From an uncultured Planctomycetia bacterium (lineage in GTDB: Bacteria; Omnitrophota; Gorgyraeia; Duberdicusellales; 4484-171): 64,000 nucleotides of DNA. Position numbers and translations under genes: made by a program. Location: assembly GCA_964536865.1 (NCBI GenBank), contig CAZHYN010000002.1, positions 608 to 64,607 of the forward strand, read 5' to 3'. Every line of letters starts with the position of its first letter. The stretch's first letter is position 1. Under the pieces are notes generated by a model. The model had not been told where the DNA came from. It searched no databases and worked only from the letters and a program-made list of their open reading frames with translations. This document shows, one piece after another, positions 9,609 to 12,368 of this stretch.

Positions 9609-11192
9609 ATGGATTTTAACAAAGAGGAGGCTAAAATGCAAGAAAAATTAAGATGTGCAATTTATACAAGGGTAAGTACGGATAATCAAGCAGAAGTTGA
9701 GTTTAACTCTTGTGAGGCTCAAGAAGAAAAGATAAGAGCATTTATTAAAAGTCAAGAAAATATGATAATTTATAAAGTTTACTCTGATGCTGGGTCCACA
9801 GGAGTAAATCTTAATAGACCTGCTTTACAGAAATTACTTGAGGATATAAAACAAGGCAACATTAACATTGTTTTGGTTTACAAAATTGACAGACTTACCC
9901 GTTCTCCTAAAGATTTCTACTACTTAATGGAGATTTTTGAGAAATACAAAGTTGATTTTATCTCAATCACAGAAAGATTTGATACCTCTACTCCAGCAGG
10001 AAGACTTTTAAGAAACATAATGCTTACCTTTGCTCAGTTTGAAAGAGAGTTAGCAAGTGAGAGAACAAAAGATAAGATGCTTCAGAGAGCAGAAAAAGGG
10101 TTATGGAATGGCGGTATTTCTCCATTTGGATACAAGACATTAAATAAGAAACTTGTTCCTCATGAGCAGGAAGCTAAAGTTGTTAAGTTAATATTTGAAA
10201 CTTATGTTGATACTGGGTCTATAGCAGAGGTTTATAACACCCTGAAAGAGAAAAATATTTTAAATAGGCATGGCAAAGTTTTTACCAAATCAAGTATTAA
10301 AAATATCCTCTCTAATCCTGTCTATATCGGGAAGTTAAAATATGCTGGGAAAATTTATAATGGACTACATCAGCCTATAATTAGTGAACTTCTCTTCAAC
10401 GAAGCTCAGGAACTGCACAAAAAGAAAATCAGGGAAATGAAACTCTTTAGAAATTATCTTTTTGCAGGTTTAATCACTTGTGAGGAATGCAGATCAAAAA
10501 TGACGCCAACCTATACAAACAAAAAAGCAAAAAGAGGAAGAAAGAGATATTTTTATTATAGATGCACCTCTACCCTAAAAAGAGACTGGCAGGTATGCAC
10601 TACAAAACAGGTAAACGCTGATAGGCTGGAAAGATTTGTTTTAGAAAATTTAGAAAGAGTATCAAAAGATGAGCCTTATATTGAAAATCTTTGTTTTAAA
10701 CTTAACCACAATCCAGATGAGTTAGTTCGAAATTCTCTTATAAAAAATAAGGTATCGGGCGACCGGGCTGGATTCGAACTAAGCAGGGAGCAATTGAAAA
10801 TTGAGCCTAAAGGTTTAATTTTCCAACTTAAAACCTTCCTTAACACTCTCTCCTCCCTCTCCCGAGCCGAGCAGGTTCTTTTAATAAAAGAAAAAATTGA
10901 CTCAATAAAATATTCCAAAAAAAGAATCAGGGTAAACTTCAAATATTCCTTAAAAATCAACAACTTAAACCCCTCTCAACAAGGTTCTGGTCAGGTGGGG
11001 GTGGGTGGTGGGAGTTTAGAGAAAGAAAATCAAAATATCCCTTCCTTTTATTCTTCCGATTTAGTTCGAAAAGAAATAATGGCTCCCCGGGCAGGGCTCG
11101 AACCTGCGACCCGCTGGTTACACCTAATCCCTGAGTTTCCCCAGAGGGTGGACTATCTCTTCACCATATTCCGACGTAATGTCGGAACTTAG
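9609..11192 (+). CDS. large serine recombinase (resolvase domain, recombinase domain, zinc ribbon and coiled-coil); integrase-type
   Basis: The N-terminal catalytic motif is AIYTRVSTDNQ, followed by DRLTRS and the recombinase-domain motifs GISPFGY, NPVYIG and HQPIIS. A Cys cluster CEECRSK..YYYRCTS..C is present. The last roughly 37 codons are antisense to the tRNA and intron, so the true C-terminus may lie a little upstream. Confidence 0.8.
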   Translation: MDFNKEEAKMQEKLRCAIYTRVSTDNQAEVEFNSCEAQEEKIRAFIKSQENMIIYKVYSDAGSTGVNLNRPALQKLLEDIKQGNINIVLVYKIDRLTRSPKDFYYLMEIFEKYKVDFISITERFDTSTPAGRLLRNIMLTFAQFERELASERTKDKMLQRAEKGLWNGGISPFGYKTLNKKLVPHEQEAKVVKLIFETYVDTGSIAEVYNTLKEKNILNRHGKVFTKSSIKNILSNPVYIGKLKYAGKIYNGLHQPIISELLFNEAQELHKKKIREMKLFRNYLFAGLITCEECRSKMTPTYTNKKAKRGRKRYFYYRCTSTLKRDWQVCTTKQVNADRLERFVLENLERVSKDEPYIENLCFKLNHNPDELVRNSLIKNKVSGDRAGFELSREQLKIEPKGLIFQLKTFLNTLSSLSRAEQVLLIKEKIDSIKYSKKRIRVNFKYSLKINNLNPSQQGSGQVGVGGGSLEKENQNIPSFYSSDLVRKEIMAPRAGLEPATRWLHLIPEFPQRVDYLFTIFRRNVGT

Positions 11193-11415
11193 GTGCCGGG
11201 CGCTTCCCCCGATATAACATCGGGGTACTCCCTTTTCGGGATAGTCTCTGCACCTTCCCCGACGTTCCGTCGGGGCTTGGCTCAGGGTTACCATCCCTGA
11301 ACTACAAGAAGTTCAGAGTACAGGCTTCCCTGAATTCACCCGGTTTTTCATCCCGATGTTTCCATCGGGAGCTGCTCTTCACAGCCAGCTGCTCTACCTG
11401 CTGAGCTACCGGGGA
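11080..11415 (-). tRNA. tRNA-Asn(GUU) interrupted by a 260-nt group I intron (exons 11381..11415 and 11080..11120)
   Basis: The exons join to a canonical 76-nt tRNA. The acceptor stem is TCCCCGG/CCGGGGA and the D-arm is GCTC-AGCAGGTA-GAGC. The anticodon stem is GCTGG/CCAGC with loop CU-GUU-AA. The T-arm is GCAGG-TTCGAGC-CCTGC, the discriminator is G and CCA is encoded. The intron lies between positions 35 and 36, after a U as group I splicing requires. Confidence 0.75.
11121..11380 (-). ncRNA. group I self-splicing intron within the tRNA-Asn anticodon loop
   Basis: The P7 core elements are R = CAGAGACUA (plus coordinates 11242-11250) and S = AAGAGAUAGUCC (11150-11161). P1 forms from the exon GGCUGU and the IGS GCAGCU with a U-G at the splice site and loop GAAGA. 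The intron ends in omega-G (complement of 11121). Several GC-rich peripheral hairpins are present. There is no internal ORF. Confidence 0.7.
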
Positions 11416-11652
11416 AGTTATTTTATCTAAGAACTTTCTTCCCTGACCTGATTTAAGAAAACGTTCTCTTTGTCTAGCTTCTTTCACACAAACAAACTCT
11501 TCATAATACACTAAATCAAATGGACCATTCTGCCTAGTCCACTGATTGGAACCTGAATTATGCTCTTTTAGACGCACTTCAACTCTTTTCGAAGTACAAC
11601 CTATATACCTCTTACCATTACGTCTACTTTTTAATACATAAACTATAGCCAT
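11302..11652 (-). CDS. GIY-YIG nuclease superfamily protein (small, YhbQ/Slx1-like catalytic domain only); the ORF reads through into the tRNA
   Basis: The N-terminal 75 aa (MAIVYVLKSRRNGKRYIGCTSKRVEVRLKEHNSG...) carry the GIY-YIG motifs (VYVL..GKRYIG, R..EH, E). The last roughly 38 codons (11302-11415) coincide with the tRNA 5' exon and intron start, so the effective protein is probably about 75-80 aa (11428..11652). Confidence 0.65.
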   Translation of the reverse strand: MAIVYVLKSRRNGKRYIGCTSKRVEVRLKEHNSGSNQWTRQNGPFDLVYYEEFVCVKEARQRERFLKSGQGRKFLDKITSPVAQQVEQLAVKSSSRWKHRDEKPGEFREACTLNFL

Positions 11653-11664
11653 CTTTCTATCTTA

Positions 11665-11790
11665 TTACAGCCCTCGCCTGAGGCGAGTTCGCCTTCGGCG
11701 AAAGCTGCTCCCTGTCTACCAGCAGGTAGGTACCTGCTTAAGCTTCCGCCTGAGGCGGATCAGCCTCTGGCTGAACCGGGGAATAAGTTA
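11665..11790. repeat. cluster of four GC-rich hairpins, with a 9-mer shared with the tRNA 5' end
   Basis: The hairpins are CTCGCCTGAGGCGAG (11673-11687), TTCGCCTTCGGCGAA (11688-11702, UUCG loop), AGCAGGTAGGTACCTGCT (11721-11738) and CCGCCTGAGGCGG (11746-11758). ACCGGGGAA..GTTA at 11775-11790 echoes the tRNA 5' end at 11407-11420. Confidence 0.4.
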
Positions 11791-12368
11791 ATTTACAAAG
11801 AGCTCATCTCTTCCAATTTTGCATACTCATTATACAACCATTGTTCTAATTTATCAACTATATTGTTACTTATCAGAAAGTAGTTATCTTTAACTTTATG
11901 AATAGCAAACGAAGCTTATTTTACCTGGACATTCCCAAAAAATAACCCTGAATTTCTCTAACGCGCTATAATCCAGTGAGTTAAGAAAATTAAAATCTGA
12001 TTAGCTGCAAAGGTGAAATTTTAGGTTAAACCCGGATTTTGCATTAGCAAAATCCGCCCCAAGGGCAGCCCTTTATTCTTCATAAGAAGAAATTCATTCG
12101 TAGAAATAAAGAGCTGGGTTAACCCAGCCCTTTCAAAAGAAAGGGCTTCTCCTTTTTAGACAAATTTTTCCCCGCCTGCTAAAAGTATATGTAAGTATCG
12201 GCGGGCAGGTAATGAAAAATTTGGGTTAAAAAATGAGCAAAGACTTCCCCAAAATTTTGGAAATCTAATGTTTTCAATGCTCTTTTAAGGTGAGAAATCC
12301 CGTTGTAAATTATCCATTTCATAGACAGGAAAACTCCAGGTTTTACAAATTGAAAGTTTATCAATAAG

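Follow-up and report, generated by a model that had tools for sequence, protein, structure and literature searches.

What a minimal nuclease gene of the GIY-YIG type is doing directly 5' of an intron-containing tRNA gene, in a reading frame that runs on into the tRNA, is the question raised by a locus in a 64-kb stretch of DNA (64,000 nt, hereafter the window). Few sequences are as highly conserved as tRNA genes, which are also classic integration sites for mobile DNA. The initial annotation of this locus had considered either a free-standing homing-endonuclease-like gene associated with the intron or a YhbQ-type housekeeping gene that happened to be adjacent. We compared the locus with related loci, cited below as L001 and so on, and arrived at a reading in which the gene belongs to the tRNA rather than to the intron.

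The GIY-YIG gene, its reading frame and its tRNA

The gene, the tRNA and their immediate surroundings were mapped as follows:

11857..11829, minus strand: sigma-70-like putative promoter (TTGATA, 17-nt spacer, TATAAT; 11/12 matches)
11652..11302, minus strand: GIY-YIG ORF of 116 aa, ATG start, TAG stop at 11304-11302
11652..11419, minus strand: residues 1-78 of this ORF, homologous to the family
11415..11381, minus strand: 5' exon of tRNA-Asn(GUU), nt 1-35 (35 nt), from reading of the sequence, matching the intron-less tRNA-Asn called by ARAGORN in L001 and L002
11408..11406, minus strand: TAG of tRNA nt 8-10, the canonical stop of the family, out of frame here after a 1-nt longer spacer
11380..11121, minus strand: group I intron (260 nt) interrupting the anticodon between nt 35 and 36 (Rfam RF00028)
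11120..11080, minus strand: 3' exon of tRNA-Asn, nt 36-76 with encoded CCA (41 nt), followed by a T-rich run, from reading of the sequence
9609..11192, plus strand: large serine recombinase ORF, outside the cassette (Pfam Resolvase, Recombinase and Zn_ribbon_recom)

The minus-strand ORF matched Pfam PF01541 over aa 2-68 (E 2e-14, 54 bits, cut-off 22.6), which bears out the GIY-YIG gene first annotated at 11652..11302. Its family-conserved sequence ends in ..FLD at aa 76, 10 nt before tRNA nt 1, close to the 12 nt originally given, and codon 80 (TCC) coincides with tRNA nt 1-3. Members of the family are typically 80-81 aa long with nothing beyond the catalytic domain, and an I-TevI-type C-terminal DNA-binding domain is absent from them; the gene had thus been rightly described as catalytic-domain-only. 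It had also been rightly described as free-standing, as it lies upstream of the tRNA and outside the intron, and no endonuclease ORF was found in the 260-nt intron. A 56-aa ORF inside the intron (11294..11124, same strand) lies within GC-rich structured RNA.

Residues Y5, Y16, R27, H31 and E63, which we assign as the putative catalytic set, are invariant in 46 family sequences; one cluster member carries H31R. Compared with L004 and L005, the window ORF has similar numbers of synonymous and non-synonymous codon differences (roughly 25 each), while near-identical cassette copies hold too few differences for an informative dN/dS. An AlphaFold model of the protein (pLDDT 96.7) has a beta-beta-alpha-alpha-beta-alpha-alpha topology. 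Because the catalytic set is invariant, the codon differences follow this pattern and the GIY-YIG fold is confident, the protein looks functional and would be expected to act as a nuclease.

Foldseek searches with the model placed UPF0213 and Slx1 at ranks 1-6 (best matches 1ZG2 and Slx1 6SEH, the latter with TM 0.67 and 2.1 A), and the GIY-YIG domains of I-TevI and UvrC were also matched. In a profile search of the PDB, 1ZG2 (E 6e-8) and 1YWL (E 2e-7) were matched far better than I-TevI (E 0.13), and against NCBIfam TIGR01453, 'group I intron endonuclease', the protein reached 19 bits, below the cut-off of 56.05. By profile and predicted fold, the window protein is therefore assigned to the UPF0213/Slx1 clade and not to the I-TevI clade, in agreement with the YhbQ/UPF0213 type that had been suggested. 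Proteins of the UPF0213/YhbQ group (1ZG2 is BH0048, 1YWL is EF2693) and Slx1, the best matches by sequence profile and by fold, are likewise single GIY-YIG domains of ~80-100 aa. In contrast to UPF0213, the window clade has an invariant C-terminal motif of its own, FLKSGQGRKFLD, beyond the aligned region, and its gene is joined to a tRNA gene and comes with pseudo-tRNA fragments and a 30-nt module. We know of no tRNA-fused, pseudo-tRNA or module context for yhbQ. PADLOC gave no match on the cassette, and PHROGs gave a weak 'homing endonuclease' match only.

Among 46 related loci, the ORF extends into the tRNA in 30, and in 23 it stops at the TAG formed by tRNA nt 8-10 (U8-A9-G10). The FLKSGQGR motif lies 21 nt from the tRNA in the window, L001 and L002, versus the usual 20 nt. 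Because this one extra base shifts the TAG out of frame, the ORF has no stop before 11302, as had been noted, and its absence is, by this comparison, not a matter of chance. Read-through of the tRNA 5' exon and of intron nt 1-76 contributes the last 38 aa, and intron nt 77-79 form the stop. The frame had been said to cover the 5' exon and the P1-P2 part of the intron; it does span the entire exon, but in the Rfam alignment its intron nt 1-79 take in P1, P2 and also the 5' strands of P3-P5. A window-lineage ORF without its proper stop could be a copy drifting toward inactivity.

On the minus strand, the sigma-70-like site is the only promoter-like site upstream of the unit, and L001, L002 and L003 each carry a promoter-like TTGAC..TATAAT, likewise putative, just 5' of the pseudo-tRNA described below. 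A separate promoter and terminator, which the initial annotation had thought might isolate the ORF from the tRNA, were not found: between the two there are no promoter-like or terminator-like sites, and the intergenic distance is zero. With a single promoter-like site before the unit and nothing separating ORF and tRNA, the parts are apparently co-transcribed from the tRNA promoter.

Pseudo-tRNA fragments, hairpin modules and the distribution of the cassette

The region between the putative promoter and the ORF was resolved into the following parts:

11782..11667, minus strand: pseudo-copy of tRNA-Asn nt 1-35 (a pseudo-5' half) with three hairpin inserts, from alignment with the real 5' exon, L001 and L002; its pieces are nt 1-8 (11782-11775), nt 9-21 (11744-11731), nt 22-29 (11710-11703) and nt 30-35 (11672-11667)
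11774..11745, minus strand: Module A, a 30-nt double hairpin (TCAGCCAGAGGCTGA + TCCGCCTCAGGCGGA) exactly after pseudo-copy nt 8
11730..11711, minus strand: Insert B, a single 20-nt hairpin-like insert (CCTACCTGCTGGTAGACAGG) after pseudo-copy nt 21
11702..11673, minus strand: Module C, a 30-nt double hairpin (TTCGCCGAAGGCGAA + CTCGCCTCAGGCGAG) exactly after pseudo-copy nt 29
11666..11653, minus strand: linker AATAAGATAGAAAG from pseudo-copy to ATG, conserved in L001-L003

This GC-rich block has a very stable predicted fold (z = -4.0). As a known RNA (SRP RNA, 6S and the like) it returned no relevant Rfam match at permissive thresholds, the best score being RT-17 with 17 bits (E 3.6). It is demonstrably a broken copy of the adjacent tRNA. 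The linker possibly contains a ribosome-binding site. The end of the pseudo-copy at nt 35 coincides with the intron site in the real tRNA; this was given no weight because Asn pseudo-copies elsewhere end anywhere from nt 33 to ~45.

The inserts differ in their distribution. An identical copy of Module A stands 3' of the tRNA in L006, and the module is absent from the 99%-identical L003. Insert B occurs in L002 in a perfect form (CCTGCCTGCC/GGCAGGCAGG) and is absent in L001 and L003; a similar insert occupies the matching position in a tRNA-Arg locus (L007). Module C, which belongs to repeat family D2 and sits in the 5' strand of the anticodon stem, is shared by the window, L001, both cassettes of L002, and L003.

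We found 111 occurrences of the 30-nt module, with 82 distinct sequences. It was confined to cassette neighbourhoods in the 422 kb of loci and the whole window that were searched, occurring nowhere else in the 64 kb, and in the loci inspected by eye it was embedded in duplicated tRNA sequence. Its length is fixed at 30 nt and its GCC..GGC core is invariant across bacterial phyla. Compensatory changes back the two hairpins, with a score reached by 0 of 500 shuffles. Insertions are exactly 30 nt long, with contiguous tRNA sequence on both sides and no target duplication, and were found after tRNA nt 8, 12, 17, 29, 36, 43, ~55 and ~61; the tRNA arm to the right of the module is short, typically ~5-12 nt by eye. 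In several Asn loci the module follows nt 29, 6 nt from the intron site. An RNA-only structure was considered for the module and rejected, as G·T and A·C mispairs on the sense strand are equal (7 vs. 7) and the pattern is alike on both strands. A phage origin was also rejected: the module pattern matched a single viral contig (L083), as a solo module without ORF or tRNA.

The family comprised 88 GIY domains in 83 loci from Omnitrophota, Patescibacteria, Chloroflexota, Elusimicrobiota and others. A same-strand tRNA is abutted by 76 of the 88 ORFs (67 directly upstream of it, nine directly downstream), and the linked tRNAs represent 13 anticodon types. Adjacency to a tRNA is a defining, conserved property of this clade and not accidental. 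In nearly all of 46 loci, whatever the tRNA identity, the tRNA of the locus is duplicated in part upstream, with a copy of its 5' portion that begins at nt 1. Most family ORFs adjoin such a partial dead copy, split by the 30-nt module; downstream pseudo-3' copies were found at some loci. The order seen in the window, with pseudo nt 1-35, then the ORF and then the intact tRNA, is general across the 46 loci. As read from these alignments, the cassette is composed of a module-split dead tRNA copy, a nuclease of ~80 aa and an intact tRNA to which the ORF is fused at its 3' end.

We take as signs of mobility that intact cassettes stand in tandem in L002 and L072, that cassettes have decayed in L003, L014 and L038, and that modules are stacked in L078. 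The acceptor stem is identical in pseudo-copy and real tRNA at most loci. At L070, the sequence of the pseudo-5' piece is that of the real tRNA-Ile in a related genome (L013), and the functional tRNA linked to the ORF has a different acceptor stem; a foreign functional copy beside a native pseudo-copy is also suggested at L007/L053, L009 and L061. The nearest-neighbour ORF was on the same tRNA type in 53 of 76 cases, against 18 expected.

The closest relatives, L001, L002 and L003, are 97-99% identical to the window cassette, with 98-100% amino acid identity in the ORF, and their tRNA-Asn is intron-less. These near-identical units differ in cassette number, in module content (A/B/C) and in the presence of the intron. 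Similarity between the window and L001 extends from pseudo-tRNA nt 1 to 2 nt past the CCA, beyond which the flanking genes are unrelated, and the flanks of L003 are likewise unrelated to those of the window. L003 carries a D-loop variant in both its pseudo-copy and its real tRNA. A BLAST comparison of the window region with the full set of 200 loci returned no empty site, and the exact neighbouring methyltransferase was traced to a contig that breaks 228 nt before the cassette.

A probable selfish cassette and its possible relatives

The ORF is probably, though far from certainly, one copy of a widespread selfish element of the homing type that lives in bacterial tRNA genes. Under this explanation, the nuclease would break the DNA of a tRNA gene, and recombinational repair within the conserved tRNA sequence would copy the ORF, together with the tRNA linked to it, into the resident gene. 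The part of the native tRNA that is displaced would be left behind as a pseudo-fragment, and the hairpin module, at the former break point, may serve to destroy both the target and the repeat homology. A stop codon inside the mature tRNA makes processing by RNase P and proper termination mutually exclusive for any one transcript, which should hold nuclease levels low. In the window lineage, an extra base before the tRNA puts the UAG out of frame, and the ORF continues across the exon and into the first 79 nt of the intron. The group I intron would be an independent mobile element that also uses tRNA-Asn.

Several points tell against the homing interpretation. No empty site turned up among the loci compared; the intact tRNA linked to the ORF would keep any sequence that serves as target, which leaves self-cleavage unexplained; an 80-aa domain without a DNA-binding domain is unlikely to be a sequence-specific homing enzyme; and the many module positions find no explanation in the specificity of a single protein. 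The tendency of ORF lineages to track tRNA type also fits a long vertical association.

The general layout has a counterpart in fungal mitochondria, where mobile endonuclease ORFs (mORFs) bring a replacement terminus for the host gene while the native one stays behind as a pseudo-copy, for example in Allomyces atp6 and in Glomus atp6, atp9, cox2 and nad3 (PMC3630166). In both systems, an endonuclease ORF abuts or is in frame with the host gene, and a functional duplicate stands beside the ORF while a pseudo-copy is displaced. The functional part can be foreign in mORFs and may be so at L070. Unlike in mORFs, the host of the cassette is a bacterial tRNA gene in which the 5' rather than the 3' part is usually duplicated, the enzyme is a minimal 80-aa GIY-YIG protein and not a full homing endonuclease with a DNA-binding domain, and the displaced copy carries a conserved double-hairpin insert.

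The module itself resembles, as far as secondary descriptions go, the GC-rich double-hairpin elements of Allomyces mtDNA (Paquin et al. 2000, cited in PMC2800124). Those are described there as short, GC-rich pairs of adjacent hairpins in an AT-rich genome, inserted precisely without flanking duplication, variable between close relatives and found near tRNA genes; GC-rich palindromes are cited in the same source as flanking mitochondrial tRNA genes in Neurospora (Yin et al. 1981, cited in PMC2800124). In contrast to the Allomyces elements as so described, the module is of a fixed 30 nt and stays beside one nuclease family rather than being dispersed through the genome.

Among bacteriophage enzymes, T4 SegB is a free-standing GIY-YIG gene among tRNA genes, as in the window, and homes within a tRNA gene cluster; it was shown to cut DNA in the cluster and to drive the inheritance of the region (PMC2330249). 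GIY-YIG homing endonucleases of this kind have, by general description, a C-terminal DNA-binding domain (PMC3664794), which the window protein lacks, and SegB is reported neither as tRNA-fused nor with a pseudo-tRNA or hairpin module.

The cassette, of ~400 bp, is apparently undescribed. In the openly accessible literature searched, we found no published account of it and no description of a tRNA-fused GIY-YIG cassette or of the 30-nt module. It appears to be a compact element of many uncultured phyla that colonises tRNA genes on their 5' side and leaves the tRNA functional. We found no described precedent for a stop codon taken from the tRNA itself, for a nuclease ORF apparently co-transcribed with its tRNA, for a conserved 30-nt double hairpin inside duplicated tRNA pieces, or for a nuclease that lacks a DNA-binding domain yet is associated with precise positions in 13 different tRNAs. 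If the selfish-element explanation is true, this would be a new kind of homing element, and it would account for 'GIY-YIG family protein' calls and for N- or C-terminal extensions such as PPEADQPLAG in metagenome-assembled genomes, as well as for contig breaks at tRNAs and ghost tRNA calls.

Other readings and the place of the intron

An unlikely but credible alternative is that the pseudo-tRNA arms around the module are a guide or template and not debris. As tRNA-promoter RNA or as extruded DNA, the arms would guide the minimal nuclease to the position in a tRNA gene that they match, with the module as a protein-binding scaffold or an inserted payload. The resident tRNA would be disabled by the module and replaced in function by the ORF-linked tRNA ('cleave-and-rescue'), such that the host could not lose the element, and the target could be reprogrammed simply by changes in the arms. 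The locus's own tRNA sequence does stand on both sides of the module, the right arm is short, and the position of the module varies while the protein stays 60-70% identical, which is hard to reconcile with protein-only recognition by 80 aa. Pseudo-copy and real tRNA also co-vary within a genome, as in the D-loop of L003, but such identity is equally expected from recent duplication or gene conversion. At L070, disruption has affected the native gene and the tRNA linked to the ORF is functional, and type-D loci carry the module in the opposite copy, as if whichever copy is redundant were struck. Set against this, the even split of mispairs and a quasi-palindromic module that is alike on both strands argue against an RNA-specific scaffold; the arms in the window, cut by three inserts into 8, 13, 8 and 6 nt, would be poor guides; and literature searches returned no precedent for guided GIY-YIG enzymes. 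If arm-directed targeting were true, the cassette would amount to a programmable nuclease system of very small size, with a minimal enzyme of a new, nucleic-acid-directed class, and, with the rescue, to a new addiction strategy resting on an essential RNA gene.

A host function for the gene appears quite improbable. It would be a YhbQ-like nuclease co-expressed with tRNAs and acting in tRNA or nucleic-acid metabolism, with the structured upstream block as a regulatory leader and the arrangement inherited vertically. Its closest relatives by sequence and fold are indeed the UPF0213 proteins, which stand alone and have no known function, purifying selection acts on the ORF, its lineages largely track tRNA type, and expression from a tRNA promoter would suit a tRNA-related role. 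However, the distribution is patchy over unrelated phyla and the 13 anticodon types, nearly identical units lie within unrelated flanks, and tandem, truncated and decayed copies occur, with pseudo-tRNA fragments on either side. The supposed leader is a broken copy of the adjacent tRNA and not a conserved regulatory RNA, it belongs to no Rfam family, and its module content differs among 99%-identical copies. The version put forward initially, a housekeeping gene adjacent by chance, fails because the adjacency is conserved and is accompanied by fragments of pseudo-tRNA, by tandem copies, by decayed copies and by units that recur identically within unrelated flanks, all hallmarks of mobile elements; the ORF end, moreover, overlaps the tRNA 5' end.

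The intron bears on the other initial suggestion. By its Rfam RF00028 score (83.4 bits, cut-off 50), its P1 helix GCUGU/GCAGC with a U-1·G wobble, its 3' end ..GGUG with terminal G and its location in the anticodon loop, it is a standard bacterial tRNA group I intron. In contrast to the classical cases (Leu, Arg, fMet, Ile), it interrupts tRNA-Asn(GUU) at 35|36, and it may be among the 17 newer tRNA intron types mentioned in a preprint (bioRxiv 10.1101/2020.01.27.920355). ARAGORN called no tRNA at the window locus in normal mode; in intron mode it called a 76+260-nt split tRNA, misnamed Thr because the splice site was placed 1 nt off. An intron at the same position of tRNA-Asn was present in L004, L012, L014, L038, L058 and L062 and in at least 120 metagenome loci.

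Free-standing endonucleases that collaborate with ORF-less introns are known in phages. It is nonetheless highly improbable that the window gene is one, cutting intron-less tRNA-Asn near 35|36, with joint spread of intron and ORF and an intron that shields the host copy: the ORF does abut an ORF-less intron, an intron, always at 35|36, is present in seven of the 34 tRNA-Asn genes linked to a cassette, and the module of several Asn loci is near that site, but the 97-99% identical cassettes of L001, L002 and L003 stand on intron-less tRNA-Asn, the family occupies 12 other anticodon types at which no intron was seen (Rfam on 20 loci), and pseudo-copies never run into intron sequence. Of the family ORFs upstream of a tRNA, 60 of 67 have no intron and seven have one; conversely, among 80 intron-containing tRNA-Asn loci from metagenomes, a GIY-YIG ORF lies upstream in three and a module in none. 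Group I introns in tRNAs are in any case common in candidate-phyla genomes, at 0.49 per genome according to the same preprint. The intron-associated homing gene first proposed, taken as an obligate coupling of intron and ORF, is largely refuted by the metagenome sample and by the intron-less L001-L003, the kind of neighbourhood that the initial annotation had named as evidence against it. With these and only three of 80 intron loci holding the ORF, the intron is therefore best regarded as a separate, polymorphic occupant of tRNA-Asn and not a partner of the GIY-YIG gene. A residual statistical link between intron and cassette is a possibility, given the seven of 34 cassette-linked tRNA-Asn genes that carry one.

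The serine recombinase converges on the tRNA from the other side and reads antisense into the 3' exon and the intron without a stop. A direct repeat of the tRNA 3' part, as the far end of an element integrated by a serine recombinase, was sought and not found within the 64-kb window. A recombinase occupies the corresponding place in L002 and is just 53% identical to that of the window.

Reading frame, tRNA-Asn and intron

The initial annotation had described a catalytic GIY-YIG ORF adjoining an intron-bearing tRNA on the same strand. This was confirmed by an ORF scan, a Pfam GIY-YIG match over aa 2–68 (E = 2e-14; 54 bits, cut-off 22.6) and an Rfam group I intron match (83.4 bits, cut-off 50), the sole Rfam match in the 64-kb window. 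ARAGORN reported no tRNA at the locus by default and a 76+260-nt split gene in intron mode. The locus, with exons and intron read from the sequence, comprises:

11652..11302, minus: GIY-YIG ORF, ATG start, 116 aa
11415..11381, minus: tRNA-Asn(GUU) 5' exon, directly behind the ORF
11380..11121, minus: group I intron, 260 nt
11120..11080, minus: tRNA-Asn 3' exon, CCA encoded
9609-11192, plus: large serine recombinase (Resolvase + Recombinase + Zn_ribbon), converging on the tRNA-Asn

Nucleotides 1–3 of the tRNA form codon 80 of the ORF, and the frame stays open across the 5' exon and intron nt 1–76, up to a TAG at intron nt 77–79. The annotated run through the 5' exon and P1-P2 therefore stands, but the actual reach is greater, into P3-P5. 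ORF and tRNA overlap in 30 of the 46 loci analysed, by exactly 10 nt in 23, where tRNA U8-A9-G10 serves as the stop codon. In the window this TAG (11408-11406) is out of frame and the ORF is left without its stop because the ORF-tRNA spacer is 21 nt instead of 20 nt, as it also is in L001 and L002, two contigs with near-identical relatives (spacer end AAAATAACT in all three vs. AAAATAAT in locus L005, each followed by TCCCCGG).

A strong promoter-like site (11857-11829, 11/12 matches) precedes a partial tRNA copy upstream of the ORF, no element separates ORF and tRNA, and a T-run lies 3' of the tRNA, so a single transcript from promoter-like site to tRNA is likely. A stop codon within the mature tRNA would mean that an RNase P cut leaves a non-stop mRNA, making tRNA maturation and full translation mutually exclusive on any one RNA molecule.

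The annotation had also offered the ORF as a possible homing-endonuclease-like gene associated with the intron. A 98%-identical homolog found by protein search ends in a C-terminal tail that is translated intron-less tRNA-Asn; the same ORF is joined to an intron-less tRNA-Asn in its contig (L001), in L002 (two tandem cassettes) and in L003 (a MAG contig with a cassette 99% identical to the window's). Metagenomes scanned for the junction of the window intron 3' end with the tRNA-Asn 3' exon showed the tRNA-Asn(GUU) intron between nt 35 and 36 to be very common (at least 120 loci, L084-L203); genomes of candidate phyla frequently carry group I introns in tRNAs (0.49 per genome; bioRxiv 10.1101/2020.01.27.920355). 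ARAGORN intron mode gave a split tRNA in 53 of the 120 junction loci among the matches listed, mostly Asn or a Thr mis-call; tRNA-Thr(tgt) is often reported for intron-split tRNA-Asn genes, the window's included, because the splice site is placed 1–2 nt off. Eighty of the listed matches extended 650 nt or more upstream; a GIY-YIG ORF was present in only 3 of these 80 and the hairpin module described below in none. Seven of 34 cassette-linked tRNA-Asn genes hold the intron, always between nt 35 and 36 (a raw count, which may or may not mark an enrichment), and in the loci aligned the partial tRNA copies never reach intron sequence. Given the intron-less relatives, the few ORF-bearing junction loci and the intron-free copies, we conclude that the intron occupies the cassette's tRNA-Asn independently and polymorphically rather than as the ORF's partner; partnership is the less likely reading.

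A tRNA-linked nuclease family

The ORF belongs to a family of ~80-aa proteins with 60–73% identity across Omnitrophota, Patescibacteria, WOR-3, Chloroflexota, Elusimicrobiota and others. Our survey covered 83 loci, drawn from 80 species-representative genomes together with L001, L002 and the window, and containing 88 GIY domains.

Position of the 88 GIY domains
Directly upstream of a same-strand tRNA without intron: 60/88
Directly upstream of an intron-split tRNA-Asn: 7/88
Directly downstream of a tRNA: 9/88
At a contig end: 5/88
In tandem or decayed arrays: 7/88

Chance adjacency, as once suggested for a housekeeping gene, was not borne out: 76 of the 88 domains lie directly beside a tRNA (67 upstream, 9 downstream), and this adjacency is the family's defining property. 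The linked tRNAs comprise thirteen anticodon types, with Asn-GTT at 34 and others including Val, Ala, Ile, Lys, Pro, Met, Arg, Phe, Thr and Asp. Of 76 ORFs, 53 have the same tRNA type as their nearest neighbour (18 expected); ORF lineages are mostly, not always, faithful to one tRNA.

Among the invariant residues are Y5, Y16, R27, H31 and E63, the putative catalytic set, and a C-terminal motif specific to the family, L66-K-S-G-Q-G71. Compared with L004 and L005, the window ORF has about as many synonymous as non-synonymous codon differences (~25 each), which is indicative of purifying selection. AlphaFold models the protein with confidence (pLDDT 96.7). Among solved structures, UPF0213 proteins and the Slx1 nuclease domain come closest, in keeping with the proposed YhbQ/UPF0213 type; the I-TevI-like alternative fell away, with I-TevI and UvrC farther off and the TIGR01453 cut-off missed. 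PADLOC gave no match, and PHROGs a weak one to 'homing endonuclease'. A host function for such a protein is less likely than the mobile reading developed below.

Several family members have peculiarities: P0004 fuses two GIY-YIG domains in tandem, P0123 is a variant of the window ORF with H31R at an invariant, putatively catalytic position, and P0081 is annotated from a Helarchaeota archaeon MAG, which could reflect either wrong binning of a bacterial contig or true presence in an archaeon. In an Omnitrophota MAG, an RNase P RNA gene (L008, 55-394) lies ~2 kb from a cassette within a tRNA cluster.

Pseudo-tRNA and double-hairpin module

Nucleotides 1–35 of the tRNA-Asn align to the structured block at 11782..11667, interrupted by three inserts; the block is, on this alignment, a broken tRNA copy.

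11774-11745: module A, 30 nt, after nt 8
11730-11711: insert B, 20 nt, after nt 21
11702-11673: module C, 30 nt, after nt 29

Nearly all of the 46 loci carry such a 5' copy of their own tRNA, from nt 1, upstream of the ORF; in some, a partial 3' copy follows the real tRNA, additionally or alone, and nine have the order tRNA, ORF, pseudo-tRNA. Insert B is of a second, single-hairpin type (CCTGCCTGCC/GGCAGGCAGG), degenerate in the window; such 20-nt inserts after D-loop nt 21 of the pseudo-tRNA occur in Asn and Arg loci (window 11711-11730, minus; L002 ~198-217; L007 ~2437-2456).

The module is a pair of directly adjoining 15-nt hairpins (6-bp stem and 3-nt loop in each), with an invariant GCC..GGC core and covarying outer pairs. 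Across 111 instances (82 distinct sequences), 98.9% of cells were paired, 128 cells had both-side changes and none of 500 shuffles reached the covariation score, figures to be read knowing that extraction demanded at least 5/6 Watson-Crick pairs per hairpin. Of the 51 loci with the ORF 5' of the tRNA and enough sequence, 38 had modules upstream only, five had them on both sides and three downstream only; in the remaining five none was detected by a strict definition. Insertions are exact, the target being neither duplicated nor lost, and fall after tRNA nt 8, 12, 17, 29, 36, 43, ~55 or ~61; T precedes in ~90% of cases, and the core CAGTT^GGCT is common to sites in the D-loop and in the Asn anticodon stem. 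Because G·T mispairs are as numerous as A·C ones and the loops (RRA, then TYY) make both strands look alike, a DNA-level role (hairpin or cruciform) is no less likely than one as RNA.

Modules were confined to cassette neighbourhoods within 422 kb, with none elsewhere in the window. A solo module lies in an IMG/VR viral contig (L083, 4944-4973), just after an 809-aa ORF, with no GIY-YIG gene or tRNA nearby and flanks not obviously tRNA-like. Translated modules give PPEADQPLAG-type strings, spurious extensions on many database proteins; artefactual extensions from tRNA and module DNA (e.g., GPVAQFPPEADQPLAGA) occur on P0004, P0012, P0021, P0069, P0106 and P0123.

Proposed mobility of the cassette

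The window and L001 resemble each other exactly from pseudo-tRNA nt 1 to 2 nt beyond CCA; outside these limits their flanks are unrelated (TrmI-like methyltransferase vs. RecR), and so are those of L003. Copy number, module set and intron all vary among 97–99% identical cassettes. Intact cassettes stand in tandem in L002 and L072, decayed ones occur in L003, L014 and L038, modules are stacked in L078, and many MAG contigs break at cassette loci. The pseudo-5' piece of L070 has exactly the sequence of the real tRNA-Ile in L013, a related Nomurabacteria genome, while the ORF-linked functional tRNA of L070 has a different acceptor stem.

The best-supported interpretation is that the cassette would be a selfish, homing-type element of tRNA genes. 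Mitochondrial mobile endonuclease ORFs supply a gene with a replacement terminus, its native terminus persisting as a pseudo-copy (PMC3630166); the cassette is analogous in pairing a putative endonuclease ORF with a linked gene and a pseudo-copy, and its module recalls mitochondrial double-hairpin elements (Paquin 2000, as cited in PMC2800124). A more speculative arms-as-guide or cleave-and-rescue reading would address how an 80-aa domain reaches tRNA genes at many different positions, why the intact tRNA is spared and what the module is for. A full-text literature search found no published account of a tRNA-fused GIY-YIG cassette; we consider the architecture undescribed, provisionally, because subscription-only papers lay outside the search.

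Beside this cassette, the serine recombinase ORF meets no stop before it reads antisense across the tRNA 3' exon and on into the intron. No second copy of the 3' part of the tRNA was found in the window. The 3' side of the tRNA-Asn looks like an integration hot spot, since the L002 recombinase, in the same place, is only 53% identical to the window's. The stretch that separates the cassette promoter from the divergent methyltransferase gene holds GC-rich palindromes and terminator-like hairpins (12054-12147 and 12108-12133; e.g., AAAGAGCTGGGTT/AACCCAGCCCTTT), with a weak sub-threshold Rfam match to the SodB thermometer (24 bits vs. 98).
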